A stretch of DNA of 61,513 bases, filler included, from Dirinaria sp. TL-2023a (GCA_051941275.1; 3 parts of 3 records of this genome joined end to end with filler, not necessarily neighbours in it); one strand, 5' to 3'; numbered from the whole stretch's first letter, positions 36,744-60,552 are shown. A program made the numbers and translations. The notes: a model not told the origin generated them from the letters alone.

Positions 36744-39166
36744 TCAATCCATCTTGCCATACCTCATCCCGGGTTTTACCCGCCCGAATTCCTTCCCATC
36801 GTGCATACTCTCGACGTACCGCATCTGCACGGCCTCCTCATTCCGTGCGGACTTGTTTTTCGCCATCGCCGATATTTCTTTCGCTCTTTGCTCTTCGTCA
36901 TCGCTCTCCTCGTCCTCTTCCTCTTCATCGTCCACGAGGGACGCGTCCCGTCCTTGTCCTCCTCCCTTCATCGCGAAAATCCCCACCGCCTTAGCTTTCG
37001 TTTCAGAAATTTTCATTCCCGCGGAGGTATTCGAGAGAACGGCAGGGTCCGGTTGTGAGTCGAGTGCCAGATTCAGTAAGTCATCGAGCTTCTCCCAGGC
37101 GCAAGAGCTGTGTCGGCGGATGATGCAGTAAAGGAAATGCGCGGTGGCGATGCAGACGTAGACCAAAAGAATGGAGACGGAGGCGTAATCTGTCTTGGCC
37201 GAAGCACGGTACGCGTAGACTGTATTTCCACGTCAGTCCGCAATTGTTGGAGTTAAATAACGGTTGAGGTGAGAGCCGAGTGCGCCGGAGCAGAAGTGAC
37301 GTACCATCATTTGCTGAGCCCGTAAGGGAGAAACCAGTCAGACCGCTCACAGGCCTGTCGTCTGGGCAGGTGCTCACGTTGAGTCCCACGGCGGGGATTG
37401 TCTTGACACAGTCGTGCCCGTCTCGAAGAGAGCCGTCGACGAAGAAGAGAGGCGAATCAAGCTGCCGAGAATAGCCCACACGTGCTACGCCGTCGGCAAA
37501 GTACGTAGCAATTAGAGACTCCCAAAATTCATACGGGCTATCCTGGTGCCCTCTCAAGAAACCGTCGATTGGTGGAAGCTGTGTATGTCCCGTGCTCGTC
37601 AATAGATTGGCAATGGTTGAGGCAGATTGCGTGAGTTCGAGCGTCGGGGAAAGATATGGAACGGTTGGCGTCAATGCATCGAGCCAAGCCATAGAGGCTT
37701 TGACATGTCTCCAATGGCTGTTATTGGCTGGGCGGAACCCGGATCCACTGCGATCATCACGCCTTAGGTACCTCTCGTCTGCACTGATTGCGATATCAAG
37801 GAGACCGTCTGCTTGTGTGTGGTTGCTGTCGCCCCAGCGAGCATCGACCGAGCAAGCCAGAGCAGACCTAACCGTATCGTTAGGGGTTTGGAGTGGCTCA
37901 AGAACCACAAGCCCGGCTGTCACAGCCTCAATGTTTTGTGCACCGTCAACCCATACAGTTCTGACGAAGTGCTCATCTACAAAGGATCGATTATCCTGGC
38001 TCCAAATTTGTGGTTCGACAGTCACAACTGCAGTGGCGTTGTTAAGATAAGTAGTATCTAATTCCAATAAGGGAAATTCGACTTGGGTTGTGCTGATGGT
38101 CACTTTTTGCCCTAAACAAACGGTCCTGACGTTCGGGGCCTGCGATTTAATGACAGACGTACGTCCATTGAGACTTAGTCTGATAGGAAAGAACCAAGTT
38201 GGGTCCCACCACAAGATATTTTGAACATATCCAGTAGCGAGGTGAGGAGCTCTAGTCCATGTTTCGATATGTTCGTGTAATGTTATAACTCTTGCGAAAG
38301 TGCTCTCTCGAAAGATTGACGTCCATTCCTGATGGACAGTATTTGATGAACTATCAAGCAAAGCCTGCATCTTTTGGTAAGCCCTAGACACACAATGATC
38401 ATCCAAGAAACTGGTGTTTTGTATGCAAGGATTAGGTTCGGAGGCATTCGAAGTTAAAGTGTGGCCAACATGAGCTTCGGTCAATGTGGTAGGGAAGAGA
38501 TCATCTGAACTTCCACTTAGCCAAACCCGCGGCGAATAAATGACCCTGCCCTATAATCGAGAAGTCAACTATCGCTGCTGAACGGGAGATAAAGAAGAGC
38601 TCACCACTGGCCTTGGCAGCATCAGGACTGCACTAGCGGACCCAATGACCAAAGCGAGTATCGCAGTGATCGTAAGGCTGAATAGGAAGAAGGCCTTCTG
38701 CCACCTTCCAGATTTGCTCCAAAACCAGATCCAGGTTGACTTTGAGAAGATGGACCGAAGACTCAAGGTGTAGCCGGAGACTAGCAGGTTTAATGGTAAA
38801 CCTACGCCGTAGAGAAGCAGAAAGAGAATGATGTCGAGAAGAATAGTGGTCATGCTGAGTACTACTAGGAGCTCCTGTTAAGGTCATTAGCCCTTTGTGT
38901 TTGACAATGGTATGGTTTCTGCGAACCTGTAGTTTGGCAGCAAGTTGGAATGCTGCCAAGGAGTTCGTGGTCGTCCACGATAGGAAGTTCAGATTATGGC
39001 CTATGTATAGGTGATTGAGGTTCATGCACATTAACAATATGGAGATTGAAACTGGAAGAAGGTGTATTGATGCGCATAGTAAAGCACGGGCGAATGTGGT
39101 GTGGATGATAATTTTCTTATTTTCGTATTTCTCAGGTTCGCGAAGAAAGGATTGTTTTCTGCGCAT
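36744..39166 (-). CDS. Uncharacterised fungal membrane protein (multi-exon; N-terminal TM cluster, luminal domain, C-terminal TM)
   Basis: Consecutive minus-strand ORFs 38633-39214, 38569-38853, 37081-38484 and 36744-37166 are separated by intron-like gaps. Hydrophobic segments: IHLLPVSISILL, FQLAAKLQ|ELLV, ILALVIGSASAVLMLPR, ILLVYVCIATAH. NxT/S sites in the middle. Start codon uncertain. Confidence 0.7.
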
Positions 39167-40179
39167 TGTCGCCCAAAAGCTTGTTGGCGAGTTTTGAATG
39201 CTAGAAAGGACCACGAAAGGCTTTCAAATTTCAATGATTTCCCCACGCGTTTTTGCAATGAGCCGTTGGCTCGCGTTGAGGGGATTATATTCGAAGCTGC
39301 ATCCTCTTTGGCCTCCTGGGCTGTGCATGGATATCCCTGAGGAGACTGTCGCCGAGTTTTACCCTGCCAAAAGCCCCGTTCTCGCCCCATGCTGGCATTA
39401 ATATGGACAAGTAGGCGCTTTCGCAGTACGTGGTTGTACTACCTGCTGTCAGCTGTGAGGGATTCGAGATCATGCCATACAGGAGGTGGCTACAAAGTCG
39501 GTAGGCTTGGCGAAATTAGCCGAGGGAAAGCACGGACTGGCCCGGCCCGGGGATTTATTCTTCAGGCTCCGTGCTCATTCGCTGCTCTCGTCCCTCCAGC
39601 TTTGCCCCCTTTCCCATTGGAATGCTATACATATATATTATTAGATACACCCCGAACTTGGGATGGGAGATTGCCATTCCGGGCCCGGGAATTGGAGCAG
39701 GTGCAGTGAACAGCGAGGCAACAAGGGGGCGCAGCAAGAGAGGAGAGGTCTTGGCTCCTCAGAGAGCGCACCCCCTCGACCCGAATCGGTTACAGTTGCT
39801 CGTGTTATTTACCCAGCAGTGCTGCCTGACTCAACGTGGTTCCAATGAAAGAAAAAGGCCCACCCCCAAGAATCATTGAATGGTTTCAGCTCATCAGTCT
39901 TGAAACAAAAGGCTACTGACTAGTCATGCACGATCTCTTTCTTGCTAATTCACCGTATCTGCGATTCCTATGCAATCCATCTAATTTCAAGATAGATATT
40001 CCATGATGCTCAAGCTATCAGCAAAGTACACCGTAAAGGGTCTTGGCCATAATGCCAATAGCCCGTCATTTTTCGTTCTCCTGTTCCACCCCCGATGTTC
40101 TTCAACCTGCTCCTTAATTCCATTATGACTATTAGGCTCAATTCATTCAAGAGTCATTGTCTCAACGCGATTCTCAGCC

Positions 40180-40599
40180 TCAGGCATGTGTCACTTCGAT
40201 CGCTGGCTGATGATTCTGACTCTTCACGGCAGCGCCACTTTTTGAGCATGCTGACGTCTGCATCGGCATACCGCAATCTTGGATTGAAAAAGAATGACCA
40301 CTAAAACAGATTGACCAATGACCCGTATCAGTAAAGTCCGACGCCATTGCTGCGTACATCCGCTGTTTCTTCTCATTATCGACTGATGTATTGAAAGGCT
40401 TATCTTTTAGCATCATATGGACGTCTGAAAAATCTCTGAGTATGGTTTGAATTCGAGGCGAGTACCTTTCGCATGTTCTCCGTGTCAAAGCCACGTGTTG
40501 CTTCGCCTCTGAGAGTAATGTCTCGGACCGTTCAAGGCTTGAAGATTTGCAAGAACCTTCAATTATTGACCACTGAACAAAGAAAATTTGGTCCTTCAC
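40180..40599 (-). pseudogene. Degenerate C-terminal fragment of an NFX1/ZNFX1-type helicase (RZ-type zinc finger)
   Basis: MYAAMASDFTDTGHWSICFSGHSFSIQDCGMPMQTSACSKSGAAVKSQNH resembles the RZ finger GHWyyCxNGHPFxIGeCGMPMexARCPECGAxVGGqNH. It has lost the last Cys and several Gly/Pro residues. No intact upstream gene. Confidence 0.7.
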
Positions 40600-41083: not shown

Positions 41084-41522
41084 CACACACATGTGGTATC
41101 CAGGGGATCTGCTTCAGGGTCCAGGGTCTAGGAGATCATGTAACCTAGTCATGTGATCAGGCCCATAAGGGTCTGGTTCATGACAAGCGGAGCGTAAGAA
41201 AAGCAGAGATTCGAACACTATTTAGATCATAAAACTGCGTAATAGATAAATAGTATATACTAGTGTGAGGGAATAGATGTGAGATCCTAGGCCTCTAGAT
41301 ATCTGATAGACTGGGAGAATGACCTAGCACCAATGCATGCACCAAGAGCCTATGGAAACCGACCTGTGTAGGCTGCGTATCAATGCTAAAGGATGATGGT
41401 GATCTAGATACAAATGCCAATGCTCCATATACCGGCGGAGAGCCGCCCACACGTGACCTCTAGCCCCCTGTCCAGCCCGCCATTGCCCTATGACCAGGGC
41501 CTGCGAGGTACACTCGCCCACA
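41084..41522 (-). mobile_element. Probable nested LTR remnants at the contig edge
   Basis: Two TG..CA-type termini read on the minus strand: TGTCATGAACC..ATCACATGAC from 41185 and TGTGGGCGAG..GGTCACGTG from 41522. The second abuts P450 coding sequence, which begins mid-protein at 41523. No partner LTR or internal domain is visible. Confidence 0.4.
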
Positions 41523-44324
41523 CTGCTTGTCGGCAACCGGATTGTCTCGGTAATTAGCGACGTTTTGGGGGAAAGACATTTTACTAGATTCTCGATTCGT
41601 GGATAGATCTTCTTTGATAATCATAGAGCTGTTCTAGAGTTGGGTGATCATTTTGCCTTCGTAACACCGCGTCGGATCTGATTCTATGTGTGCAGCGCGG
41701 ACACTCTGAATGAGATTATTCGACGTAGCAACGAATTCCCGAGGCCGCTTGAGCTCTACGATGAGTTCCGCAACTTGTTTCGTAATTTTTTTTTTTTTTT
41801 TTGTTTTGAATTTCTTACTCGATTCAACACCCACGAGGGGCCTATGCGAGATCTATATACTTGTATCGGCGCTGCGTTGGCGCGGCGACCGACTCTATCT
41901 TTATTACATGTAGTTTTCTCTATCCGTAATACTAGGAAATCCTTCATGCGAGGACTCTATGAGTCTAGTGATCTGAAGGAAGAGCAGTCGCCTGGAACTG
42001 ACTGAGTAGACCAGTGGACAAAATCATTCGTATCGCCGCTGTGACATCAGCGACGCTATCGAGCAGCTTTCTCACATTTGTGCTGTAGTTCGTTCTTCGT
42101 TGCATGTCTAGTTTCTTCTGTCTTCAAGTAGAAGACATTAGTAGCACATTTCTGACTGTGATGCGATCTTGTTCGCAGTCACAGATCTCTGTAGTCACCT
42201 CAGAGACACGTCGTTTGCTCAGAAATTGATTGAAGTTTATCTTACTCGTTCTCAGCTGTGTAAGCAACGCACTGTGTGACTTCGCTCGTTCATCGTGGAG
42301 TTGTATATGACGTCGAGTTACCGCAGACGTCAACGCGCGATAATGAGCTTCATTGGTGCCTTCTTTCCACTTTCTTCGCCATTCCGCGCGAGCTTGTTCT
42401 TGAACTAACGCCGCTCTAGCGACAGGTTCGCACGTCAGTTGATTGGGCAGCGAATATTTGTGTGCCTCACTGACTACTCTATCCGCTTTTTCGTTACCTT
42501 TTATTTCTTTGTGGCCGGGTACTCAGTGAAGTTCCAATGAAGCTCCTTTTCTTCGTATCGCTTCACACGCGCTCTGTATGCGCCGCAGACGTTGTTGATC
42601 TGCCGTCGAGATCATTGTGTTTACTACCCTTAGTGATGCCTGACTATCTGAGTAAATCCTATAAATTTTGCCCTCGCAGTTATCACTTCTTTCGCAGTGA
42701 GCTGCCAGTTGCTCAGCGCCGATAGTAAGTCCCTCGAGCTCTCCATGATGTGGTAATGCTATATCGATTCCTCCAAGACGTCTTCCCTGTTCCCAGTTTG
42801 CGCCGACTGCGGCTGCGGTCACATCACTATCTTGACCACTTCCGTCCGAGTAGACTCGCCAGTATGGGTTTGATTTGTCCGCATTGTGATGTTTCCTAAT
42901 TTGTGGACAAATTTAATCTCAATAGAGTAGCTGCATTCCTGACGAGTATGCCGCGTAGGTTGAAGGCTCAGAATGACAGCGTCAGCGAAAACTTACCAGT
43001 GGGCCCTTCAACGACGAACACTATAAACTTGTCTGAATCGAGTCGATTCGTCAAGCCAGCGAAGCGCTTATGTGCTGGCTATGGAAGGAGCATCCAGTGA
43101 CAGATACGGTGAAAGACGTCAGAGCACTCTCACTGCATGTCCTTTCCAGCGCCGGTTTCGGAAAGTTCTATCATTTCCAAAAAGGCGGTGAACAATCAAA
43201 ACCCGGCCATGTTTTCAATTACAGAGACGCTCTTGCTTGTATCTTAGACAACATCATGATTATCTTTGTAGTCGGTCCTGGAACACTCAAGAGCCGTTTT
43301 CTACCTAGGCCTTTGTCCAAGATTGGTCATGCAATGTTAGACTTCCAAGCCTACTTGAAAGATATCTACGATGAAGAGGTTTGCTCTATGTTCGAAGAAA
43401 GACAAGCGTCAGTCAATATAATGGCTTCGCTAGTCCGCTCCACGACACTAACAGATGACGACGCGAGTTTCGGGGAATCCGCAAAAATGTCGCCCACAAA
43501 AAGTGCTCCTAGGGGTCTTTCTGAGTCTGACATATATGGTAATGCGTTTGTATACAACTTTGCTGATCATGACACGACGGCGATTACACTGAGCTGGGCC
43601 ATCTACCTTCTTGCTGCAAATCCTGAAGTGCAGGAATGGATCGGTGAAGAGATAAGAGCAGTATGGAAACCCGACGAGGCAGCGATCAATGAGTATCGCG
43701 AGGGTTTTCCTAAGATGAAACGCTGTTTGGCTATCATGGTATGTCTAGCACAGCTGAAATTAGGCCTCAGGGATCTTTAAGTGATACATTTACTCACTTG
43801 GAGTATTTCAGCTTGAGGTTCTTCGGCTTTGTAATCCACTGCCAGGTATCATGAAATCAACCAACGAGAAGATCCTTGATATAAACATTGGGGTACAGAC
43901 AATAACGATACCAGCGGGCGTTCGAGTCATTCTGCACACCTGTGCAATCCATACAGATCCCAGATACTGGGGCTCTAGCTCCCTCGAATGGCAATCACAG
44001 CGGTGGATTGCCACGGCGAGCAAGAGTACTTCCAGTTGGGAGGGCGAAACTCTGATTGATCCGCCTCAGGGTATTTACGCGCCATGGTCTGGAGGCCCTC
44101 GAATATGCCTAGGAAAGAAGTTCGGGCAAGTGGAGTTCGTAGCGGTTATGGCTACTCTCTTTAAAGATTATAGAGTGGAGCCGATTCCCAGACTGTCCGA
44201 GACCCTACAAAGTGCTAGAGCGAGAACACTAGCCGCAGCCAAAGACAATGAAATCGTACTCTTGCTTCACATGTCAAAGCCAGAGAGTGTGAGTCTTGAA
44301 TGGGTCAAGGAAAGCTCCAAGTAG
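41523..44324 (+). pseudogene. Cytochrome P450 pseudogene, split by a LINE and carrying multiple nonsense mutations
   Basis: 5' part 41523-41760 (HFTRFSIRG*IFF..ELGDHFAFVTPRRI*FYV..EFPRPLELY). 3' part 42959-44324 (VEGSE*QRQRKLTSGPFN..LV*IES; FADHDTTA I-helix; EVLR; WSGGPRICLG heme motif). Stops at 41604, 41679, 42974 and 43034 fall at Trp-like positions. Splice donor mutated to ATGAGT at 41761. Confidence 0.88.
41786..42889 (-). mobile_element. 5'-truncated non-LTR retrotransposon (Tad1-like LINE): RNase H, degenerate zinc knuckle, 3' UTR, poly(A)
   Basis: RVYSDGS..HGELEGL..IYSDSQASL..LELH*VPGHKEIKGNEKAD (RNase H), LLTQLRTSKI, CDCEQDRITVRNVLL, stop at ~41965. Poly(T) on the + strand at 41786-41802. 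Candidate TSD TGTTTC(G/C)TAATTT at 41776-41788 and 42890-42902. Confidence 0.88.
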
Positions 44325-44593
44325 CACGACATCGCAGCGATGAAGTCATAAGTGAATTAGAGATAGATTAAAGCTATTTCGACGTCGCTAATTTGAAGTC
44401 TGAAGACGTAATTAGATACTGAGATAAGATGGCTCAGGAAGTAGTGACTATGATTTAACACTAGATCATGCTTGTTTAGTCATGATTTCTCTAGAATTGT
44501 TTCGTGAGTTCTCAACTGAGTTATTAGCAAGAGCTAAAGTCGCTTAGAATGATCGATCATTGCTTCTCTTTGATGAGTCTTGCAGTACATATT

Positions 44594-47500
44594 TTACTCT
44601 AGTCTCGTAGCAAACCTGTTCAATACTGAATCATCTGCAAAGAACCTCGTCACTTCATCGGGCTCACACAAAACAAACTCACAGCTTCCATCCAGCAAGC
44701 GAGGCAGAACCACAGGCACCGAGGGTAAATTGCCTTGCGACGGGACCCTGAAAGCCGCTATTCTATCCAGCGTATCACCGAAGTCGATATCATACGTCTC
44801 GAAGCCGAACCAACTGGTAAAGAACACGGCACTCGTCTGAAAATTATCCAGAACGCCCAGACGAATTGGTGCGTGCAAGTGGTTCTTGTCCACCATAGCG
44901 AGAAAATCGCGGAATTTGTTTCCCGTCAGATTCTTGAGTTCAGTGCGCATTGCGAGTGCCGCGGCTTGAAGGCCCGGCACTCTTGCAGCCTCCGATCCTG
45001 ATATCTGTGGATTGGTTGCGGCAGCACTGTCATTGCTAGACACTAATTCAGCGAAGGGCAAAGTAGCGTGAGCCGCGAACACCACGTTTCCCAAGTAAGA
45101 ATCCGCAAGGCCAAGACGTTTGCGGCAGTTCACCGACTGAACGAAGTGCGTGGACGACTCGTCTTCAGAGAATAGGCCGGCACAACGACGAGCGCGGAAA
45201 ACACTTCGCCAGATGAGCGCTACGATAGCGTCATGTGTTGATATACGAGTACGATCGACAAAATTGGCCTCCCTGTTCTCGCGACCTGGCGTCGGCGTGG
45301 CGGCATGTTTCAAGTCGGCAAGCGTACTGCTGCTGATGCGGAAAGTCGTGCAGCTGGTCCTTTTCAAGACAGTTCGCTTCGATAGACCAATATACCAGCT
45401 TGGATGATTGTCTACATTTCCAAGCATACCTTTCCCGAAGACAAGAGTACTTCGATCGTAGAAACACCTGGGTTTTGATGTTTCGCCGACATCTTGCTGT
45501 GTCTTTTGAGCTTTCCGTAAGTTCTTTGCAAAATACTTGATAATCTCATGAATTCCATGTCCATCACACACTGCGTGAATTACGGTCACAGCTAGAAGCA
45601 GGCAGTCGTCGACAAATGTGGCTCGGAAGCGGCAGATGTCGCTTGGATTTCGATCATTGGCCCCGTTCTCGAACAATGGGCAAAGCTGCTCACCATCTAA
45701 AAGCTGGGTAGGAAACCCTTTTTCGTGGAGACCCCTGTACTTGACATTTTGCACACGTCTCACTTCAAGAAGAGCAGGCCCCTGGCGATAGAGGTTCGAC
45801 AGCCATGGTTTGTCTTGGGAATATGGTGCTACTGTCCCCGCTAGAAAGGGGTGTTCTTGTATCGTTGACCTGAAAGCCTTCAGAAGCGATTGCGTTATCA
45901 GCTGCATTTGGTCGTTACTGCCATCTGATAGAGAAAAACACAGTATCCTCCTTGAACAGCTGGTTCCCCGACACATATCCCATGAAGACAGTCGTAAGTC
46001 ATGAGATAAACTCGGGATCGCGAACGATCTCTCCGTCTGTATGCCCTGGGTGACGAAGATTATTCCCAGTATCTCGAGAGCCTCGCTGACACTCTTGGTC
46101 CAGTTTTCCCGCTTACACAGCCACTCAGCACATCGTTTCATTCCATCCACCGCCCTTGTTGCCTCATCGTGGCTCAGATGGCAATCGTCGTAACGCAATC
46201 TCATACCTCCCTCTTCTGGACCCAGAAGTCCGCAATCCCATATTGTATTTACGTCGGAATGGGTCCGGTGCTGTATAACCTTGAAGGCCTGATCATCGAC
46301 ACCACTAGGATCGAGAATTCCCTCTAACGTTCCGTTCCAGTCAAAACATTGTCCCCTCAAGGCCTCGGCAAATGCGGCAGCGTCTGATGCGTCTAGAGAC
46401 TCTTTAAGTTGGCTATGTGGTGCTTGAGCATGCTGCGTGAGAAGTTGCTGGTCCCTTTTAAGGTTCTGAAGAAATGATATCATGAGTTCGGTAGGTGATG
46501 GTTTGATTCGATTTACCACGAGCGAGAATGTGGGGCCCGCTATTGAGACAGAATCTGGAAGATGACTATTTGTAACTAAAATGGTATGATCAGCTACAAG
46601 TTCTATGGTAGAATGCGATATTCTGCCCTTTATTCTCAGTTCCGGAACGTCCAATTGTCATGCCCTAAGCGTAAGACTGAAGCGGGGGCACGATGATGGA
46701 AGCAAAGACTTACAGCTATTCAGGAACGGCCACTGGCGGGCAGCCTGGAAATTTTGGAACACAGCAGTGTCTTGTCCTGTGATCAGCATGTTGAATAAGG
46801 CAAGTCCAGCTTTAACTACAATGTCTGCCGAGATTCCATATTCTGTCTTTAGCATCTGAATCCCTGTTAGATTGATTTTAGTTGAGACGCCTTGGATACC
46901 CATGCCGCGGTTGGGGTTGCGTTGCCTGCGCTCACTCGTATACCCTGGCTTTCCGTCTAGGTGCTTCCAGCCTTCGTCGTCGCCGATGAAGTAGCCAGGT
47001 GTTTTCGGCGTTGGCCAAAAGCAGGGCTTTAATTCCGCGAGTCCTTTGAGTCGATCTCGATGAAAATTGACGGAGAGCTCTGCAAGAAGGCAATTACGCT
47101 GGCAATAGTAAATGTCGGCAAAGTGTTTGTAAGAAACGCTGAAGCTTCGCAAGGCCGAGGGATCGAGAAGAAGCCGGCTGACGTCTTGCAGCCATGCTGA
47201 CAGAGAAAAGGCATCATAAATAGCGTGATGAATCCTAATTGTTGCACCGATCTTTCCAGTGCTCTTCACTCTGACGATACCAACGCGAAAGAGCGGACTT
47301 TGAGGAAATCCCGATTGGAACGCTGGTGGCGATGTGTTGGCGAGGTGATCAGTGTTGTCTATCTCAATAGCTGTGTCAATCAAAAGTGACATCCATTTCG
47401 GAGTCGGGCGAATGCAGAGGAATAGCCGAGTTCTCGAGTCAAACTCAAGTGACATAGATCGAAGTAGTGGCCAGGCACGCAAAGATTTTTCAATCGCGTT

Positions 47501-49823
47501 ACGAAACATCGTCGGCTCGGTTAACTCGCTTACTAGCGAGATGTGAACATTCCATGACTGCAGTCGAGAGTTACCGAGAAGATGGTGCTGGTAATCGGGC
47601 ATTGGTATTACAGCTTCCACATCGGTATCCCAATCAAGGTGAAAATGGCTAAGAAGCGGTGCTGCAAGGATTTTGGTCCGTTGTACGCGGCGATTATCTC
47701 CATGGGCATGTACCATATCAACAGGGTCTGGAGTCCCCACATCCAATGGTCTAGATGCCGGCCTAGCCATCGTTGATTCAAGGTTTTCGAAGTGTTCGGC
47801 CTGTTCTCGAATGGTGCGAAGACATAGTAATTGCGGAAGATCAATGCTCCTACCATATTGTCTTTTTACTAAGCCCTGGAACCTAAGGACCTCGAGGCTA
47901 TCAGCTTTATCAATGATGTCGGGCGTAGCCAGTAAATCCTTGATTGGCTCAAGTAATAGGTGAGACCATATTGTAGCAAATGACATCTCAATCGAAGCCT
48001 TATCTGAGTTTAGTTGGTTGTTTACACGCTGCAGATGGCCTTTTATTAAAGTCCGAAGGGTGTCCTTTTTGACTTTCCCACTATTCGTCTTTGGAATGTT
48101 AGTAAGACCTAGCTCGTCAAAAGTCAGAATGGCTTCAGGCGCAAAAGCAGAGCCAAGTTCCCTCGCTATGTGCCTTCTCAATTCTTTGTCATCAGGCTGG
48201 CATCCAAAGCTCATCTGTACGATCGCGACTGGAACCTCCCCCGCAACAGCATCGGCTATCCCAATGACATGGACTTCCTATGAGCGCAGACAGTCAGTTG
48301 GAGCTAAATGGGGTTGTAATCACAGATCTGTTCCTTACGCGTATCGCGGAGATCTTCTTTAGCTGGAACTCTATCGCTGCTGGTGCTATATTTTCCCCGC
48401 CACGTATTATCAAATCTTTGTATCTGCCCAGGATGAATGCGTTCTCTGCATCGTCCAGCAAGGCTTGGTCGCCGGTAGCCATCCAGTTACATCCGTCGTC
48501 GTCGACATAGAATTGGTCATCAGCTAAGCCTAAGTAAGATGTGATAACCCGAGGACCGCCTATATGGAGTTCTCCAATGTCTCCTCTACGAAGGGTCTCC
48601 CTAGTATCAGGATCACATATTTTGACTGTCGCGTTTGGCTGAACGCGGCCCACACTAGCGAAACCGTTGTAGAGGGTCAGTGGTCTGTCAGCGCTTGTCG
48701 CGAAGATACCTGAGGCTTCACTCATGCCAAAACCCCCATATACAATTTTGGCACCCAAGATAGACGGGTTCTTGCAGGCTTCAAGCATCTCTGGAGAGAC
48801 AGTCGCACCGCCAACGAGAACTGCGAGAGGAGAGACTGTGTTGTGCGAAGGATCGGGGAGATCAAGAAGGGTCTGGATCATGGTCGGTACCGCGGCTAGA
48901 AAGGTGACTGCTTCCTCTGCTATAACCTTCCTGATTGCTTTTGGTTCCAATTGGCCACTGGGCATGACCACCTTAGCTCCGCTTCGCCAACACCGGATTG
49001 AAACATCAACACCCATCTGATGAAAAGTAGGCGAAAGAACAAGGGCAGTAGGAGGGCTGGACGCAACAGGACTCGATCCGGTAAAAGGACTGTTATGAGA
49101 CAAGCTTAGCGTGGTATGAGGACAACCTTTTGGGGAATTTGTCGTGCCGCTAGTGAATATTATCAACTCGACATCATCTTCTCTATCTTCGTTCTCTAGG
49201 TCAACCGCTTGGTCCATAAGTTCTGTAACTCCCATAGTCTTGATAATTCTACTAAGTGACGTCCAACTCTGGCCAATGGCACCCTCGAGTTCTTCTACTG
49301 CAACACGGGCCTTAATATTTCTGTCTTGCTCGCGGCAAACATAGTCAACTTCTTGCGCTGTTATAGTATCATGAACTAGGATCGCAGCTGGGTTCACAAC
49401 CGAGAGATAATGCTTCAAATCTTGCCTTCGTTTGGCACTGCGCCAGTCAAGAGGAACAAAAGTAGCTCTAAGCAACGCAGCTGCCCACAGCGCCAGGGCA
49501 AATCCAGCCTCGTTACCTAAGAAGGTGATGATGCAATCCTGCCGAGTAACGCCTTGCCGCTGAAGCCAGGTAGCAAAAGCTCTCGATTTTGTGTAGAGCT
49601 GGCTGTAGGTCCAGCGAAGCCCATCAAGGGCCGCGTTGTTGTCGTTATTGCAATTAGATCCCTCACCAGTGTATCCAAATGGAGGAAGGCAAACCAGAGC
49701 TTCTTGGTCGCCACGAAGCTTGACCGACTGGCGGAATTGAGTCTGTAGACTCGAACATTCTACCTTTTCCTTGGCCCCTTTGATAAGAGCAATATCTTTA
49801 GCCAAACTCGACGTTGAGACCAT
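44594..49823 (-). CDS. NRPS-like protein A-T-C fused to a C-terminal BAHD/Tri101-type acyltransferase (~1,676 aa, 3 exons)
   Basis: A domain of acyl-CoA-ligase type: FTSGTTNSPKG, GFGMSE, GELHIGG, TGD, GRYKDLIIRGGENI. T domain ADSL. C domain HHAIYDA. Transferase HPFLAG, HAVCDGHG, YLGNVV, DIDFG. GT-AG introns 48278-48338 (phase 0) and 46576-46713 (phase 1) keep one frame to the stop at 44594. Confidence 0.85.
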
Positions 49824-50658
49824 GTTTGCAGTGGTTGGGTCCAAAAAGATGAGATCAACTTGTTGATAGTTGGGCTAAGAAAAATCGTGCTCTACTGCTG
49901 GAATACTTCGAGACGTGGATCTTAGCATTGAGGACGTATAGGTACTGGGGACTTAGGTGGCCCGAAGGTACCTAGTTTGTCATGATTCAACCAGAGGACT
50001 ATTTCTTTCGGCGCTAAATGCGTAGTTGCCTATAAGCTGATAAGACGACGTTTGCATCCCATCATGCCGTAGCTTATGCCGGTAGTTCTTGCTCTTGAGT
50101 CTTAGTGCAAAGGTGGCGTGAGATTCGGTCGTTTGACCTCAGAAGACTTGCAGACATGATCTAATTGCGCCGATTAAGTCCGCGGACGTTGAATCACCGA
50201 AGGTATCATTTCCTAGAGCAGTAAAAGGTCGTGTTTACATACCGATATTAGGCGTAACTTAAACGATCGTCCGCAACAAAGGATGATAGCATGCTGTCGA
50301 CCCATACACTAGATTTATTGGCTAGGAACTAAGCGTTCTAAAGTTAGTTTGCTATGTAACGGTCATACTCGGATTCGCCGCCCACAGGGAAGGTGACGTG
50401 GAGGGCAAAGATAGCTCAGCACTGGGTTATGGATCCACAAGACTTGCAGATATGGTTTGTGAATGCGAAGTAAGTCCCCGAATGTACAGAGGCCAGAATT
50501 AGGCTGGTCTAGAGCAGTAGCAGCCCTGACTCCAGCCTTCGTGGTTGCGTCTAGTATAAGCGATGATAGACAGAAAAAAATAATCGATGGAGCGATCCAC
50601 CCATCTACTAGGTCCATTGGTTGACCTTTCATCCAATCTTAAGCCCTAAAATTCTATT

Positions 50659-53600
50659 TTATCCGTTCTTTCCACCTTCCACACCATCCTGGACCAGGTT
50701 TTTATCTATCAAAGTGGATTCTGCCGCTATCTTACCCCCAAGGTGATCTATACTAGGGCTGTTCATCAAGACCATCAACGGCACTTTGGCGTCCAAGTCG
50801 CACGTGATCCAATTTCTGAACTCGACTGCTACAAGGGAGTCGAGCCCGTAGGCTACAATAGGTTTTTTGCTGTCGACATCGTCTTCGGTGATCATGAGTA
50901 AATTTGCTAGTTTCTTGATTAGTAAACCCACAATGATTTCCGTCGCTGAAGCAACGGAGGATGCGGCTTTAAGGCGCTGTCGTACGGGCACAACACCTTC
51001 AGTGGAGGTCTCGGTGCAGGCGGACATCGACTGAACGTCATGAAGGACGTGGCTGAACTTGGGATCAGATCCCCAGACAGGAAGAGGTTTTTCTGGAGAA
51101 AGCTTGAACCCAGTCAATGTTTGCTGATATATAGGGTTGTGGGGATTATCAATGGCAGCTTTAATTAGAGCATGAAGTTCGCACTCGGAAAGACTGTCGT
51201 GGGCCGCAAGACCGATTTCTGTGCGACGATCGATGTTCTCGGCAACGTAACCAACATTTTCCACGATGCCAATATCAATTGTGCAAGCTGCTAGACCAAG
51301 GCTTTGTCGGTAAGCAGCAAAGGAATCCAGGAAGGAATTCGAAGCTGCGTAGGCGGTCTGCCCGGGATTACCGAGAACACCAGAGCCAGATGCAAGTACG
51401 ACGAAGAAATCCAAAGGTGAGGTCAAAAAGCTATGATGCAGATTCAAGGCACCGTTAACCCTAGGGGCAATGTTGAGTGTCCAGTCTTCGTGAGAGATCC
51501 GGTCAAATAGAGCATCTCTGAGCGCCATTGCTCCATGAATGACGCCTCGAATTGGTGGCATGGTCTGATGACATTCGTCAACAAGAGACTGAACTTGGGA
51601 GCGATCAGCGATGTCGCATGCTTTGACAACCACGTGGGCACCAAGACATTTGACTTCATCGATAAGCTCTGTGATGCCCGATTGCTGAAGTCCACTGCGT
51701 GATGCAAGCACGATGTGCTTTGCTCCCTGACCAGCGAGCCATCTAGTGATGGACCTTCCCAAGCCACCTGTGCCCCCTGTGATGAGATAGGACGCATGCG
51801 GGGACACGGAGACTTTTGGTAGAGGAGCTGGCATAGCCTGTTGAATACTTTCAGTTTCATCATCTGCATTATATTGTCCCGTAGACTCACCTGCACTTTA
51901 TCACAAGTATTTACTTCAACGACTACTTTGCCCATATGTTTCCCTCCTTGCATTACGCGCATACCTTGACCGAGCTCGGACATGGGTAAAGTCTTAATGG
52001 GGGTTATTGGTCGTATGATATTGCATCGATGCAGCTCCATAATATCCGTGAGCATTTGTTTAATCATCTGGGGTTTGGCTTCTAGAAGAACGCCAAGATC
52101 CACAGATATGAAGGAAACCGAGTCTGCAAATTTTTCCATTTCGAGATTTGCGTTTTGCACAATATCCCGCTTTCCGATTTCAATGAATCGACCGAGAGGT
52201 GCAAGACACTGAAAAGATTGATGCAGTATCTCGCCTGCCGTAGAGTTCAAGATTACATCAACTCCTCGCTGATTTGTTTTTCTCATTAATGTTCTCGCAA
52301 AAGTGGTGTCACGACTAGAGAATATATGATCCTCTGGTATGCCGTATCTTTCAAGCAGAAGACTGCACTTTTCGCTCGAACCTACGGTTGCGTAGATTTC
52401 TGCTTTCGCGTTCTGCGCAAGCATGATAGCTGCTTGCCCCACACCGCCAGCAGCTGCGTGGATCAAGACTTTGTCGCCTTCACGTAATCTGCCCATCTCG
52501 AGTAATGCGTAACGAGCGGTGCAGAATACGACAGGAAAGGAGGCCGCTTCAGAGAACGTCATGTCTGACGGCATACCTGTCATCATCGAGTTCTTCACTC
52601 GCACTGATGAGGCATAAGCCCCTTTGGCCATTCCACAGACCCTATCACCAACTCTGAAGTCATAGACATCAGACCCTATGCGGCTGATAACTCCACTGCA
52701 CTCAAGACCCAGATCATGATAGTAGGGGATCTGTCCAAGGCTAATCATGACATCCTTGAAATTGATGCCTGTTGCTTTCACAGATATTTCGACCTCATCA
52801 TTCAAGAGAGGAAGCTGTAAGGTCTCATCAGCAACAAAAAATATACTGTCAAGCAGGCCTATCTGGCCAAGCTTCAGCTTCAAAGGCCGGCCTTCCTGGA
52901 CGAGATACTCCGGCTGTGGCAGTGGTGGACGTGTTTCTCGGACTACATACTCGTCCTTGCGTTTGTCCTTCAGAATTCGGGGAATGTAGAATACTCCATT
53001 TGTTTCTTTAAATTCCATGTCAGCGGCAAGACCTGATCTTTTCAAATTAAAAACGTGGCTGGCCGCTTGCAGGATGAGTTCTGCAGTATCGTCATCTGAC
53101 AGCCGAACTTTTGCGTCGAAGTCGATAGTCGCGAATCGCAGACCTGCATTTTCTGACCTAATAGATCGTGCCAAGCCAGCCACCATGTTGGCTAAAGGTT
53201 GCTGAGTTGAAGCTCCACGAGTAACCCAGAGTATCCCGCGAGCCAGTTGAAAAATGCTTTGCATTCTCTCCAGCGCTGTCCCATCGATCTCGAACCAGAA
53301 GGCGTCCTCCATTTCTAGAACAATAGCGTACTTGTCATTCAAGTCCGCCTCTAGCAGCTGACCGACGGAGACCACTCGAGTGGCTCTATCGCTCAAGTTC
53401 ATGCAAAGAGTATCGGTCAATGGGTCTTCCTTTCGCGAGAAGGTTTGAACGAGACTAAGATCCGGACAAGAGGGCTTTTGGTCAGATTTCGCTGTCGCTA
53501 ACATAACGCTAGCAATGCTATGACCGTCACCATTGATCTGTACACTCCCATCGACTCCTGTGAATCCATTTTCGTGAAGAACGCCATCCCAATGCGATTC

Positions 53601-56600
53601 TTTAAGGAATGGCCCATCACGGCGTTCAGGCTCCTCTCCAAGCCACCATCCTGCACATACATTTACATGTTAGTCAATATCCGCATTGGGCGACAAGACA
53701 CAAGATTAAATTGTTATGTGATGCAACCCCGTTGAGATTACTCCTTACCTGGAAGAGTCCCAAAGATAATCATATTCGACAAAAGCTGCCCTGTAATTTC
53801 CGCGATAAGAGCTTTACCACCCGGCTTAAGTAACCGCCGAACATTGCCAATAGTATTCGCCATGTTGGCCGTAGCGTGAAGGACGTTTGTGGCCACAACA
53901 AGATCATACGATTCAGATTGGAAACCCTGGCTAATGGGGTCTTGCTCTATATCTAGCTTTCGATAACCTAGAAAAACGCCAGAGTCAGTGATCGCTTCTC
54001 CGAATGTGAGTGGTTCAAATGAAACATAGCTTACTGATCCTCTCGGCCCATTCTGCTTGCTCTACCTCCGCACTTTCGAAAAAGCCTGTCGATACGTCAG
54101 TGAAGTCGAAATGGGCAAATCTATGGCCCATCTGGCGAAGCATTGGCATTGTTGCGCCGCCTGTGCCAGCCCCAAGTTCAATAATCCGCATGTTGGGGTT
54201 CTGATGCGCTAGCTTCCCAAGAATGGATGCTGTACGCTCGTAGCCCCAGTTCACCATATCATGCTGACGATAGTAGTTTTTGAGCATGTTATCTTCCAGC
54301 ATAATTGTGAGAGGCTCGACTTCTTGTCGAAAAATATAGGATAAATTACGGCCCATATTACACACCAAGCGCCCACAGTCGTCAGAAGACTCCACTTCCT
54401 GGAGAAATTTGGTCTTCTCCGCTGCTCCAGACTCAAGCCAATAGAAGTTCTGAAAGGGCAAGCATCTGCGATGACCTTCTTCGACTACAGCAGATAATAC
54501 CCTGAATAACTGTTGAAGGTGTGGTGAGAACCGTGTAGCTTCTTGCGGTATAATGTCCGCGATGGTGAGCTCGATATGAGCAAATGCAGCTCTCTCCAGT
54601 TTGTCTATCTGAGGAGTTGAACCCTTCTGATTTATTGGGCCGTCAAAAATGGTACGGAAATTCTTGGCAGACAGTAGATCCAGGTAAGGCTCCCAGTTCA
54701 ACATGTAACATAATTCGCGTTCACCAGAGTGGGCAATGTCGACATTCTGATCTGGTAGTTTTGTCACCACTAAACCATCCACTTTAATAAGCGGGTCTGA
54801 ATTGAACTCTCTATCCAGAACAAAAAAGGACGCGTGGATGTCCGGATTAGTAGTATTGACAATGGGTGAAGCCTGCGCGTAGCTAGCAAGTTGGAATCTG
54901 GGGGACGTAGGTAGGGCATGGCATATGGTGACCTCTTTCACAAAGGTTGGCACATGTATGTCGCTGCGGGAAAGATCGCCTCCAGCGGCGGCAAAGTCAA
55001 CAACCTGAAAGCATGCGTCGAAGGTACCTGGGTGAATTATGTGCATGCTTTCGTGATTGTTGGGCATCATCACTGCAGTATCGGGAATGATGATGATACC
55101 AATCGAAAGCCCGTTAGCAGCGTAGGCAGCAGAGATGTTTCGGAAGGCTGGACCAAATTCAAGGCCGCGCCGAGAAAAACGTGAGTAGATATCACTTGTA
55201 GTCAAGGTCTTCGTACATGAGCTGTTGAAGCTGTCGACAGTGTCTTTGTAATATCCCTTATCATCTTCAACTTGACGCGCTCCGTTAATTGGATTTGGCT
55301 CGAAGTCACCGTGGGTCAGCGAGATGAAACCATGGCAATGCTCTGCCCAGCCGCCTTCGTGAGTCCAAGAGAAAATCTGAAATTCGTTCCACGTATTTGA
55401 GACACTACGAGAGCCTTCCCTATGAGGACGCAGAATCAGCGACACTTCTGTCGCAGAATCATGCACAAGTACCATGGAACGGCCAATCTTGACTTGTCGC
55501 AGCTTGTACTGGCTTGCTGACGTGACAGAAATCTCATGCAGTAAAGCGTGCTGGTACGCGGCTTCAATTGCCATAGCTAGATAGCCAGTTAAGGGAAAGA
55601 TCGTGGAGCCTTGAACTTGATGATCCGCTAGCCAGGGGACGTCCGATATGCGGAGAATGTTTCTCCATCTAGGCTCAACGTGATTATAGTCATCGACAAG
55701 ACTACCCAATAAATCACTTCGAGGAAAGGCTCTACGTCGGTGATTTGCACTTAATCGTGATTCGTGCCAGTGTCGCTTGCTGTGGTTCCAAGGATATGTC
55801 GGGAGGTCTCTTAGAAGCGGTGGAGGTTCAAGATTTGCATGATTGATGGCTTTGAGATCAAGTCGGCAGCCTAAGACGAATAGCGCCGATGCAAGTGAAA
55901 GCATGGTAAGGCTTGCATTCTGGCCTCTTGTCAAGCTAGAGAAGTATCTTACTCTTGAAGCCCAGTGCGAATTGCTCCTCATGATATCTCGTATGGGAGA
56001 CTCTAGCGTGCAATGTGGTCCGATCTCGATGAGCGCATCTGGACCTTGACGTTCAGTGTACATGCTTTGAACAGCATCCAAAAATTGCACCGGACTAGTC
56101 ATATTCTCAACCCAGTAGGCAGCATCAAGAGATTTTGTGTCGATTTGACGGCCATGCACGGACGAGTGGAATTCCACATTCTGAGCGAGTTGGGGTTCGA
56201 CAGACTTTAGGGAAGCCAGATACTCGGACGAGATGTCTTGCATGTGATGTGAATGATAGGCAACATCCACCTTCAATTGACGACTGAAGTGATTCTCTTG
56301 TTCTGTAATGTTTTGAAGCCTTGAAATACCTCGCTCATCTCCGGAAGCAGTAATTAGAGATGGACCATTGACACAAGCTATGACCACTTGTGCGGACCCT
56401 AGTCTCTCGAGCATTGGCCGAACTTTTGCAGAAGAGGCCCCGATTGCAAGCATCCGTCCAGAACGTCCTGTTTGACCTTTGCTCAGAGTCTCTGCTAATG
56501 CGCCACGTTGATACGAAATCAACAAGCAAGCTCGTGCAGAAAGTGCACCAGCAGCGTAGGCTGCCGCAATTTCTCCGCTCGAGTGTCCAGCAACGGAAGA

Positions 56601-59046
56601 TGGTTTGATACCCCAAGAACAGAGTAGACATACAAGGGCAATTTGGACTGCGGTGGTGGCAGGTTGGCTAATTACGGGTTGGTTCACCAGAGAGGACTCA
56701 GCGTCTTTTCCTAGCTCGACTAGGATACGTCAACAATTTTCTGTTCATGACAGACATCATCTTCACCTACCTAACAGCGACCAATCAGCTCCAAAGTCCT
56801 TCAAGTACGCATCCGACTCCTGCATAGACTTCGCAAAGATCTCGTATGAAAAGAGCTCTCGGCCCATCGCATGCCATTGAGAACCTTGTCCCGTGAAGAC
56901 GAATCCCAGGCTTGGCTTGTTAAAGGATCTGGTGAAATTCCCGGAGCTACTAGCTAATGCTTCCCTCAGTTCTGTTGAGGTGGATGCAGCCACCGCTTCT
57001 CTCCAGTCCAATGTCGAGCGTCGATGGCCCAGAGTGAACGCCAATTGCTCTAAGAACATTGCGTCATCAGAAGCCTTGGCTTCGGAAAGATACGACGCTA
57101 GACTAATCAGCCTTAAAGGTGTAGAAGCGTGTGTGGAACGTTAAGAAAGGAAGATGTTTCGAGAGCGTTGAGGTAGACTTACCAAGCCTATCCATGTAGC
57201 ACTTCAGCGATATCTTATCGCCAGCACTAAACACAAACAGATATCTGCTCGACGCGCTGTTCTGTTCAAAAGACTCCGATGTCGCTACAGACTTAGCTTT
57301 TGTCCAAACGCCGTTGGTGTGGTGATCATCAATCCCCTTTGTATGCGGGTACCCGTTTGATGTTTGCTTTCCAATATACTGTTCGAGGATGACGTGTGCA
57401 TTGGTACCTACAACCTACAGTTATTAAAAGACAAAACCAGGAGATCATGCTAATTTGCCTCCGAACCCAAAGTTATTTATCGAAGCTCGTCGCGTTCGTG
57501 ATGTGGGCCAAGGTGCAAGCGAAGTTGGTACCTGAGTCTGGTAAGCCCAAGCTAAATAAAGATGTCGAGAATGGTACTTTCAGCTTCCAAGTCGCAAGCG
57601 GAATCGCCGGGTTCGGTGCCTCAAAGTTTATATTCGGAGGTATAATACCGTTTTCCAAGGCGTATATAACCTTGACCATCCCAGTCAACCCGCTGGCAGC
57701 TTCCAAATGCCCGACGTTGGTTTTGATAGAGCCCACGAACAATGGCTCGTCCCGGCCGTTAGTAAAGATTCTAGAGATTGCTTCTGCTTCTACAGGATCG
57801 CCAGCCGCTGTGCCCGTTCCGTGAGCTTCAACATAATCGGTCGCAGCTGGATCTAGCCCAACTGCGCGGTATGTACACTCCATCAAGCTTGCTTGAGCTT
57901 CACAGCTTGGAAAAGTAATACCATGTGTTTTACCGTCTTGATTGATGCCTGTGTTGCGTATGACGGCTCGAATGTTGTCCGAATTCTGGATGGCAGCGTC
58001 TAAGGGCTTTATTAGAAAGCTTACAATTCCCTCACCACGACCGTAACCAGTTCCTCGAGAATCAAATGTATATGACCTCCCCTGTTCGCCGAAGAGTCTA
58101 AAAGCGATTAGAATATGCACTTGGACGAAGCCCATCAACCCACCTGAGCATGCTCATTCCCACCATAGTGTCTGGGCTAAGCATGATATGGGCACCACAT
58201 ACAACAGCCTGACTGATCTCGCCAGATCGCAGGCTTTGACAGGCAGTATGAAGTGCCGCCAAACTCGAGGAACAGGCTGTATCCATAGTAATTGAGGGGC
58301 CTTTAAGGTCGAACACGTAACTGATACGATTAGACAGAATATTGGCTGAAGTACCAGTTGATTGATATACTGGGAGGTCCTCAACATCTTTCGATAGGAG
58401 GTTGGTGTAGTCAATCTGAGCGGCTCCAACGTAAACGCCTGTAGACGTACCCGCGATGTCATCGAGGGGCACGCCAGCTGCGTAACCCATTTAGCGATCT
58501 GGCTTCGCTTTGTCAAGTCCGAATAATTTACCGTTTTCGAGAGCTTCATATGTGACTTCGAGCAGTAGTCGCTGTTGAGGATCCATCGCCTAATTCAATT
58601 GTTAACCCTAACTTAAAATGAGCCTTAGGTACTTGCCTTCGCTTCATTTGGAGATATGTTGAAGAACGGAGCATCGAAAAGTCCAACATCTTCTTTCAAA
58701 AAGTGGGCTCCAGTACAGTTGAACTACGTTCATTGTGAGCCCGCACTGTGAGAGAGTCAGGATCATTTCGGGAACATACACAGCCACTTTTTGATGGGTT
58801 TGGATGGAAGTAAGCTGCTGCGTTCATTCGATCCTTTCGAATTTCGGACCACGCTGATTTACTGTTGCAGCACATCTCCCACAAGGCTTGAGGAGTCGTT
58901 GCATCTCCAGGAAATCGACCAGCAAGGCCAACAACAGCAATGGGCATTGTTGCGGCCTGCGACGGCGAAGAAGTAGGATCCTTTGCATCTTGCTCACTAT
59001 CAGGGCCATGCATGCCGTTGAGATTCTGAGTGAAAGTCATTGGCAT
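50659..59046 (-). CDS. Highly reducing iterative type I polyketide synthase (KS-AT-DH-cMT-ER-KR-ACP), multi-exon
   Basis: [83 protein letters not shown]. c[59 protein letters not shown]. No release domain. Confidence 0.96.
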
Positions 59047-59695
59047 GATAATCCTTCGTGTAGCAAAATTTTGAAGGACTTGAGAATAACAGCAAGAAAT
59101 CAGAGATATAAACTCGGTGGTTGGGGCCTCAGGTCCACGAGTAATTCTTAGAGTACGAAGGGTGAGATCGTAATCTCTGCGTCAACCGAGTGGCAACCCG
59201 TAGTGCACGCGATTTTAGCTAGTTAGTGTGCTAGGACCACTGCGTAAGATGACTAGCATATACCGTACAGCTAGTTGAAGGATTCAATTTTGTGTCTCGA
59301 TCCTGGACCTGAGGCGCATTCGGATGCACCAGCATGCAGAAAGGTCTGGTGGCAAGGAGGCCGGAATGGTGACGTATCGTTACGGATCTTTGAAGGCACA
59401 CAGTAGAATAAGCTTACGGAGTTGATCGAAGTGGTGCATTTTACACGGCGCGCTCCGGACATTCTCGGAGACTGTCGACAATAAAGACTTAAGATAGTAT
59501 AGATAAGCACTGGTGGTGCGTATTGAATATACCGTTACTTACGATCAAATTATTTTCAAATTGCGCGAGTAAAGCTTTGCTCCTGGGAAGGATCTACCGA
59601 AAAGGAATCGCCTAATTCAAAGACTCATCTATCACCGTCGTGTGGCGATAGTCACTATCAAACTGTGGACAGCCCTGACAAATTATGCCCAAGGC

Positions 59696-60552
59696 CTACA
59701 GGTGGGGATGGCTGCATTCGAGACTCCTCTGAATGGCTTGTCGTATCTCCCTGGCCATAGCTCGAGTAGTTGAGGGGTCCCAAGGAATAGCATGACTCCT
59801 GCCATGGTCGTAGATTTCTGCCGACTGTCTATCACAGAGGTTGTACAAGGCCAGAGAAGCTCGGTAGCCAGGATCTCTTGATCCGACGATATGGGCTGTT
59901 GGGATGGTGATGCGTGCTGGCGATTCGTCCGCAAGGATAACTCCACGATCTTGGCATCGCTGAGGAGGAGTCCCGCAAAGAAAAACCGCGAACTTGAATC
60001 GGCTCTTGAGGTTTTGCGCCGCATGGCGGAGCAGTAGACTGGCAGCCACGGAAGCACCTTCGGAAAAGCCTAGTATACCATCGAAAATGTCTTCCTCCTC
60101 CTGCACAGCGAGTTCTTCAACGAAGTCGCAGGCCGGCGCTGCACTGAAATCAAGTAGGCCATGCTGTCCTAGCTTTCGCATAAACTCTTCTGGGCTCAGT
60201 TTTTCTTCCGAACGTGCGCTGTCGAGGCCTCCCGCTAGGCCAGTCAATTGAGGGGCGTCATCGCCATAGAAACGGTAGTAAGGGCCTTCGTATTGTTCGG
60301 CTACGCCCACCATAGCGGGTGCTAGATTGGGTCCATCGATAAAGGTTAGGTGCAGCTCATGGGTCTTGCGTAGTTCGTACAGCACAGGAGCTTTGTTTAA
60401 TCAGTCGACGAATTGCGAGTATGTGCTGCTAATCACCTAGCTGGGTTTGCAGAATCTGTCGGAGGATGTTAGCTGGATCTGTTTCAGGCGTAGGCTTCAG
60501 TCTGAGATACATTTGCGTTCATGCCCACGCCGTGAAGACAGAGAATCCTCAT
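59696..60552 (-). CDS. FSH1/LovG-like serine hydrolase, candidate trans-acting PKS thioesterase (3 exons)
   Basis: MRILCLHGVGMNAN start (ATG 60552), GILGFSEGASVA nucleophile elbow, IPTAHIVGSRD (Asp) and DHGRSHAIP (His). Lies directly upstream of the PKS in the same orientation. Confidence 0.9.

Follow-up and report, generated by a model that had tools for sequence, protein, structure and literature searches.

The locus described here raises the question of whether three neighboring genes of a lichen-forming fungus release a polyketide acid, re-activate it and transfer it as a single pathway. The DNA analyzed is a stretch of 61,513 nucleotides (nt), filler included, from Dirinaria sp. TL-2023a (GCA_051941275.1), hereafter called the window. 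It is fungal DNA with short introns. Its minus strand carries three intact, co-oriented genes in the order hydrolase, highly reducing polyketide synthase (HR-PKS) and a fused enzyme, and a convergent cytochrome P450 gene lies beyond them. The fused enzyme joins a ligase-like adenylation (A) domain, a thiolation or carrier (T) domain, a condensation-like (C) domain and a BAHD-type transferase, and is termed A-T-C-transferase. This four-domain fusion appears to be a novel architecture that was not found elsewhere in the databases searched. Structurally, this secondary-metabolite locus of a lichen-forming ascomycete is intact. The genes, and the frames in which domains of the fused gene were matched, are as follows.

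59696..60552, minus strand: FSH1-family serine hydrolase gene; 251 amino acids; three exons (60552-60511, 60455-60437, 60390-59696)
50659..59046, minus strand: HR-PKS gene; 2577 amino acids; 12 exons; domain order KS-AT-DH-cMT-ER-KR-ACP
44594..49823, minus strand: A-T-C-transferase gene; 1676 amino acids; three exons (49823-48339, 48277-46714, 46575-44594)
48294-49874, minus strand: AMP-binding (Pfam, 195.8 bits)
46661-48277, minus strand: AMP-binding_C and a weak Condensation match (Pfam; Condensation 25.7 bits, below the 30.6 cut-off)
44594-46657, minus strand: Transferase (PF02458) and TRI-like_N (Pfam, 67.9 and 48.7 bits)
44594..46036, minus strand: transferase domain, from Thr1197 of the fused gene

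Pfam scans were run on raw open frames between 41 and 61 kb, and gene models were rebuilt against relatives. In the rebuilt, spliced models, 649 nt separate the hydrolase stop codon from the PKS ATG, and 835 nt separate the PKS stop codon from the A-T-C-transferase ATG. The A-T-C-transferase and P450 stop codons are convergent and 269 nt apart. None of the three spliced models has an internal stop, and together they run for ~4500 codons without a stop or frameshift. These measurements agree with the initial annotation of this DNA, which described three co-oriented minus-strand genes with ~0.65-0.85 kb spacers, facing a P450 pseudogene.

The fused gene and its junction

The exons of the fused gene are separated by introns of 61 and 138 nt. 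An in-frame stop at 46658 was considered as a break in the gene and rejected, as it lies inside the 138-nt intron (GTAAGT..TAG). Among solved structures, the A domain has its best relatives in 4-coumarate, feruloyl and fatty-acyl CoA ligases rather than in amino-acid A domains, and the ligase-like character first assigned to it is thus upheld. The carrier serine is found in KADSL, the condensation-like motif reads HHAIYDA, and the transferase carries HAVCDG and DFGD. The A3 and A8 motifs, the A10 lysine, the carrier serine and the C-domain HxxxD align with all eight A-T-C relatives, with some conservative substitutions.

The motifs of the transferase domain are likewise conserved. The window has its HxxxD, and so do all but one of the 15 relatives, the exception being P0133 (Asn in place of His); a motif of the DFG or DW type occurs in 14 of the 15 (P0128 reads GFG). 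In an AlphaFold model of exon 3, pLDDT is mostly >90 for the transferase part, and the C-lobe fragment is of low confidence. The best Foldseek match for the transferase is TRI101 (2zba; E value 4e-29, TM 0.81 on the target, ~20% identity), which is also matched by sequence (E value 5e-11), and the fold matches plant BAHD enzymes as well. Thus, the A-T-C-transferase architecture proposed at the outset stands as to the A domain, the transferase and the motifs; its C domain falls under the Pfam threshold in the window protein.

The evidence that the fusion is unusual comes from searches across its junction. A 687-amino-acid frame spanning the condensation-like end and the transferase was compared with 1.84 billion representative proteins by using HMMER, which gave 700 hits, the best 150 of which were listed. 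Among the matches listed, only P0001, the gene's own model, matches both sides of the C/transferase junction. The six other listed proteins of at least 900 amino acids align through their own C-terminal ends to query residues 16-216 and no further. The transferase relatives listed are free-standing proteins of ~450-480 amino acids, at most 42% identical, that start near query residue 209-214. When long relatives were sought among 5.8 billion proteins by shared words, P0001 was the only one returned. ESM Atlas, searched with P0001 among clusters of at least 50 members, showed 10 rows of A-T-C or A-T proteins (1008-1273 amino acids), none with Transferase. No functional names occur among the listed A-T-C and transferase relatives, and neither this cluster nor an A-T-C-BAHD fusion was described in the literature listings searched.

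The two kinds of relatives meet at the junction almost end to end. A-T-C relatives end a few residues past a block reading '...NW.(R/K)SV.EC'; here, the frame continues for ~15 residues into 'TERSFAIP...'. At that point, free-standing transferases read 'M(E/D).(T/S)(F/Y).(I/V)(P/Q)', and they align from their own residue 2-13 to 46033-46024. An ACG codon (46036-46034, Thr1197) occupies the position of their start methionine.

The only close A-T-C relative is P0138 (Q9219_007086) of cf. Caloplaca sp. 3, which is 56-59% identical in the database searches and 57% identical over 1149 aligned columns, and comes from another lichen order than the window species. P0138 retains the linker of the fusion together with the first eight residues of the transferase, and its model ends four residues later (12 in all). 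This end may reflect either domain loss or a truncated model. Because P0138 keeps the same linker and transferase start, the read-through junction is not an assembly error of one genome. A junction conserved in a second lichen order would imply an ancient fusion, not one that arose by accident in a single genome. The same named genome as the window holds an A-T-C paralogue, P0146 (Q9191_005282), which has a distant locus tag, is 44% identical and has no transferase.

The three longest of the close transferase relatives (P0125, P0136 and P0137) end in an enoyl-CoA hydratase/isomerase domain (ECH_1, 148-164 bits), the result of either a recurrent transferase-hydratase fusion or merged gene models. 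Because these close relatives are fused to an enoyl-CoA hydratase, the transferase clade probably handles thioester donors, among which an acyl group bound to the carrier would count. A similar logic applies to mycobacterial FadD/PapA systems.

The fused protein would be the first case found of a carrier-tethered BAHD-type domain. If functional, it would represent a new coupling of acid activation to acyl transfer, and possibly a small ester- or amide-forming catalyst.

The hydrolase and the polyketide synthase

The hydrolase gene matches Pfam FSH1 (PF03959) with 73.3 bits, against a cut-off of 21, on its third exon alone (59699-60400, minus strand). Its introns are GTATCT..CAG (55 nt) and GTGATT..AAG (46 nt), and the 19-nt micro-exon apparent between them (60455-60437, minus strand) agrees with the 'IL.TQL' residues of P0019. 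The catalytic triad is represented by Ser in GFSEG, Asp in GSRDP and His in SHAIP. LovG, which releases a chain from an HR-PKS, is a member of the FSH1 family, as the initial annotation also stated.

All seven HR-PKS domains are matched by Pfam in pieces between 50662 and 59181 on the minus strand: the N- and C-terminal ketoacyl synthase families, Acyl_transf_1, PS-DH/PKS_DH_N, a methyltransferase, ADH_N/ADH_zinc_N, KR and ACP. The active-site motifs can be read in the 2577-residue model. These include every motif that had been called intact beforehand, among them the S-adenosylmethionine-binding motif and the ER nucleotide-binding motif. After the ACP, which has its serine in DSL, ~40 residues remain, with no thioesterase, reductase or condensation domain, so that the earlier statement that the PKS has no release domain in cis is confirmed.

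The reading of the PKS gene itself required one correction. The frame is open after the predicted splicing, but 2 of its 11 introns require GC-AG sites (58636-58590 and 57458-57408), and the other nine are GT-AG. Intron lengths are 46-98 nt, and splice sites were set by comparison with the 74%-identical P0003 and further relatives. The GC donors are GCAAGT and GCAAAT, and no GT alternative holds the conserved KS blocks in frame. The intron 2 donor reads AAG|GCAAGT, which fits the consensus for spliced GC-AG introns.

Two suspected breaks in the PKS gene were rejected. Overlapping tblastn pieces and a ~420-nt intron in the database model suggested a frameshift between ER and KR; a 53-nt intron (GTGAGT..CAG, 51890-51838) instead gives an ER/KR junction that agrees with five relatives. 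The other suspected break was where the KS ends; there, two short introns (57577-57532 and 57458-57408) bring back a block seen in correctly modeled relatives.

The PKS groups with those of lichen fungi. In a FastTree phylogeny of 28 rows, it is sister to a Xanthomendoza model (74% identity over 2566 columns, support 99) within a 17-row lichen clade, and non-lichen PKSs, ScyPKS included, fall outside this clade. The same named genome encodes a PKS paralogue, P0004 (Q9191_000596; 64% identity), with a distant locus tag, and in the tree the window PKS is nearer to the Xanthomendoza model than to this paralogue. Among the matches listed, 21 PKSs are at least 45% identical, all of them 'hypothetical' or unnamed; 20 come from lichen fungi and one has no name. 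Identity to any listed non-lichen hit is at most 43% over a 904-residue query. The only pathway-type name among the listed hits is ScyPKS, at 36%. The protein listings therefore hold no high-identity match to a characterized cluster, in keeping with the proposal that this candidate lacks a studied counterpart. Orphan HR-PKS clusters with a trans-acting hydrolase are common, and this part of the locus appears to be of a known type, with no characterized counterpart among the listed matches.

Models of related PKSs bear on how firmly the hydrolase and PKS are associated. Among the best 120 PKS relatives listed, four (P0002, P0006, P0017 and P0019) have an N-terminal FSH1 domain. Their source species are that of the window and three others, namely Teloschistes cf. 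exilis, cf. Caloplaca sp. 3 and Haloplaca sp. 1. In these models, the hydrolase part aligns with 60391-59681, at 46-48% identity to that of the window. In P0006, P0017 and P0019, the FSH1 domain is joined to the KS by a short linker, and all three keep the triad positions in their N-terminal parts. A true N-terminal FSH1-PKS fusion was rejected for the window, in which the hydrolase frame ends in a stop codon and the PKS has its own ATG 649 nt further on; the P0003 model begins at the position of this ATG. The merged models of other species are probably prediction artifacts as well.

Because models with an FSH1 domain are found in each of the two halves of the 17-row lichen clade, the pairing of hydrolase and PKS is old. 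Whether the models represent fusions or merged neighbors, they appear to place the hydrolase directly upstream of the PKS across the clade, which fits a LovG-like role in release. It is highly probable that the hydrolase and PKS act together.

The window's exons are identical to the models P0001 ('MAG: hypothetical protein Q9191_002742', 495 of 495 residues) and P0002 ('..._002743, partial [Dirinaria sp. TL-2023a]', 230 of 230). Both models nonetheless seem mis-spliced at 59698-59176, at 52382-51961, at ~46090-45895 and at a 3' end near 44680. The deposited-style models join the hydrolase to the PKS across a stop codon and 649 nt, and skip ~420 nt of the ER region where the 53-nt intron is enough. 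They also treat as intron 65 residues at the transferase N-terminus, to which free-standing relatives align, and alter the transferase C-terminus. The corrected models matter because automated cluster mining would be misled by merged genes and by partly removed ER and transferase domains.

One pathway or separate units

In the pathway we propose, the PKS, with its apparently active cMT, DH, ER and KR domains, would build on its ACP an acyl chain that is methyl-branched and largely reduced. As the PKS is without a release domain, the upstream hydrolase would cleave the thioester and free the acid, as LovG does for LovB. The CoA-ligase-type A domain would then activate an acid, most likely the released polyketide acid, and load it onto its own carrier. 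The condensation-like domain, the transferase of the TRI101/BAHD type, or both, would pass the acyl group to an alcohol or amine to give an ester or amide. Since the locus has no amino-acid-activating module, the acceptor must be a free small molecule. The analysis shows the gene structures, the domains and conserved catalytic motifs, the linkage of hydrolase and PKS in other lichens, and a four-domain fusion that is unique in the databases searched. We infer the release step, the acid activated, the acceptor, the division of labor between the two transfer domains and the unity of the pathway.

Confidence in these steps differs. The balance tips slightly toward the fused enzyme belonging to the same pathway as the hydrolase and PKS. 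That the fused enzyme loads the polyketide acid itself is a tentative assignment, just short of an even chance. The same caution applies to the whole scheme of release, re-activation and transfer by three genes, which is favored here as a working proposal in which we have slightly less than even confidence. The scheme draws on co-orientation, short spacers, open frames and conserved catalytic residues in all three genes. As first put forward in the initial annotation, the scheme keeps the anatomy, the ligase-type A domain, the triad and precedent on its side; conserved linkage was recovered for hydrolase and PKS only.

Several observations weigh against the proposed pathway, and linkage is the foremost. 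Of the conserved linkage expected among the three genes, that between hydrolase and PKS recurs in three other species, but for the A-T-C-transferase no second case of linkage to this PKS clade was seen. P0138 and the nearest PKS of the same species (Q9219_006593) are on different contigs, ~490 tags apart. No A-T-C relative was returned from Xanthomendoza, the source of the closest PKS (74%), by a shared-word search of proteins of 945-2695 amino acids. These absences rest on length- and word-limited searches and on draft assemblies. A metagenome scan with the T-C alignment was also tried and set aside: it gave two loci of ~30% identity that contain A-T-C only, with no transferase or PKS beside them. 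Being distant and A-T-C only, they are silent on the synteny of orthologues.

Other points on the same side concern the domains and their surroundings. Condensation scores 25.7 and 28.4 bits, below the 30.6 cut-off, and covers profile positions 25-158 only, and Pfam returned no PP-binding match for the window's exon or for P0001. In relatives, Condensation passes the cut-off (P0138, 40.8 bits; P0146, 33.6 bits), PP-binding scores 24.9 bits in the paralogue P0146, and the serine of (A/V)DS is kept in all eight. Nothing at the locus appears to identify the substrate of the A domain. Two PKS introns seem to need GC donors, and no transcription factor or transporter was found by Pfam beside the locus among the larger frames of the window. 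Moreover, the locus may be drifting, because its only tailoring gene, the P450, is dead and a retroelement has been inserted.

The linkage data lend themselves to a different explanation, in which the functional unit is the hydrolase and PKS only, and the A-T-C-transferase is a chance neighbor or part of a dispersed pathway. The recurrence of one linkage without the other favors this explanation. Also consistent with it are the PKS and A-T-C paralogues of the same named genome, which have non-adjacent tags (Q9191_000596 and Q9191_005282), and a distant A-T-C relative on a 7.2-kb metagenome contig with no PKS in the 2.8 kb upstream. However, the genes here are co-oriented with an 835-nt spacer, and their chemistry is complementary, in that a PKS lacking a release domain would yield a free acid usable by a ligase-type A domain. 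Fungal secondary-metabolism genes are also usually clustered. We therefore regard this explanation as unlikely, although it is the strongest competitor.

A somewhat less probable alternative retains one pathway and reverses its polarity. Another small acid would be activated and esterified onto a hydroxyl of the polyketide by the condensation-like domain, the BAHD domain, or both, in the manner of Fum10 and Fum14. In fumonisin biosynthesis, Fum10 (of the acyl-CoA-synthetase type) and Fum14 (carrier-condensation) are described as attaching tricarballylic acid to the PKS backbone (PMC7711896, from the text available). Fum10 and the A domain here are broadly the same kind of ligase, and the enoyl-CoA hydratase domains of P0125, P0136 and P0137 point to small CoA-type donors for this transferase clade. 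However, no gene that would produce a special small acid is present at the locus, the product of a fully reducing PKS may retain few hydroxyls, and a working hydrolase, as predicted here, suggests that the polyketide leaves as a free acid. These considerations make reversed polarity doubtful.

An extension of the favored pathway is more speculative than either competitor. The fused protein could be a double acyl-transfer enzyme, in which one ligase-carrier pair feeds the polyketide acid to both transfer domains in cis, to give self-esterified or doubly acylated aliphatic esters. We consider this improbable, as we do its possible products, of which aliphatic depsides of the bourgeanic-acid type would be an example. 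Such depsides are known from lichens. Among the 12 listed of 17 papers that mention bourgeanic acid, none concerned biosynthetic genes for these compounds.

The state of the P450 gene and its surroundings is relevant to whether the locus still makes a product. The features left of the fused gene are as follows.

43037..44324, plus strand: C-terminal two thirds of the P450 (exon to 43738, 73-nt intron 43739-43811, exon 43812-44324)
41786..42912, minus strand: 5'-truncated retroelement relic; its poly(A) tail is 17 T on the plus strand (41786-41802), and RNase H is at 42127-42912
41460..41785, plus strand: P450 N-terminal remnant, read in translation (left edge approximate), with in-frame stops at 41604-41606 and 41679-41681

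The P450 had been described as dead, and it has indeed been disabled by nonsense codons and by a retroelement insertion that separates its N-terminal third from the rest. The C-terminal part contains I-helix, ExxR and heme-binding (WSGGPRICLG) motifs and matches the p450 family of Pfam with 43.8 and 62.3 bits (profile 202-309 and 330-441 of 462; plus-strand pieces 43037-43780 and 43785-44324). The N-terminal piece has no Pfam match. From a recognized sequence pattern, we take 41460..41785 to be the P450 N-terminus, and the TGA at 41679-41681 falls inside a conserved block of it. The retroelement is recognized by RNase_H when its single stop is read as X (E value 1.8e-6, 28.6 bits, profile 6-139 of 141); scanned separately, its pieces reach only an E value of 0.18 in Pfam. 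No convincing target-site duplication was found among 20 short repeat families in 41650-43150.

The least probable explanation, that the locus is silent or decaying, with open frames whose original product is no longer made, draws on this broken P450, on the two GC splice donors and on P0138, the sole close relative of the fused gene, whose model reaches only 12 residues past the transferase start, but ~4500 open codons with all catalytic motifs kept speak against it, and the loss of a tailoring step need not stop a pathway.

The surroundings add little to the cluster. It had been suggested that the cluster may continue past the end of the window; the 960 nt to the right of the hydrolase hold no gene-like feature that could be found. 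In the rest of the window, 8 of 33 larger frames match a Pfam family (acyl-CoA dehydrogenase, INCENP, reticulon, GMC oxidoreductase, WW, NmrA-like, flavin monooxygenase-like and RZ zinc finger). The GMC oxidoreductase, NmrA-like and flavin-monooxygenase-like frames (21346-22986, 29434-30411 and 32565-33470, minus strand) are located 8-20 kb to the left of the locus, with a large RZ zinc-finger gene (37084-40599) in between.

Genes have been assigned to only a few lichen metabolites, and the fungi of lichens are difficult to culture, which makes a compact locus of three intact genes a practical target for heterologous expression.

Comparison with known systems

The proposed three-gene pathway can be compared with characterized systems part by part. 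LovG and FSL2 are described, in the available text of PMC6274466, as trans-acting release hydrolases of HR-PKSs. Like the LovB/LovG and FSL1/FSL2 pairs, the locus has an HR-PKS without a release domain and an adjoining gene for a small alpha/beta-type hydrolase. Unlike in the LovB system, the PKS here has its own apparently active ER, and therefore no trans-acting ER is needed.

The transferase differs from its best structural match in its setting. TRI101 is a free-standing enzyme that uses acetyl-CoA, whereas the domain here is tethered behind a carrier domain, so its donor may be a carrier-bound acyl group.

The Fum10/Fum14 system resembles the locus, by its published description in the part consulted, in pairing an acyl-CoA-synthetase-type activator with a carrier-condensation protein to form esters on an HR-PKS product. 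It differs in that these are separate Fusarium proteins without a BAHD domain, as far as that description goes, and in that the polyketide is the acceptor.

Single-module A-T-C enzymes provide a precedent for the first three domains. AneB, ThmA, FlvI and DrcB are described as forming intermolecular esters or amides, with the C domain releasing the product, and AneB needs the second His and the Asp of HHxxxD (PMC10720950, as far as its available text goes). These enzymes activate amino acids, whereas the A domain here is CoA-ligase-like. In addition, a fourth domain of the BAHD type is not among the features reported for them in that text.

A further parallel is the initiation of lipopeptides in pneumocandin and emericellamide biosynthesis, where an HR-PKS acid passes by way of an acyl-CoA ligase and an acyltransferase to the first T domain of an NRPS. 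The model given in the available text of PMC3672099 involves a released polyketide acid, a ligase, a carrier and acyl transfer. The proposed pathway would follow this lipo-initiation as there described: a methyl-branched PKS acid would be freed and re-activated by a ligase, and its acyl group passed on. Unlike in the pneumocandin and emericellamide systems, the ligase, the carrier and two transfer domains are here combined in one polypeptide.

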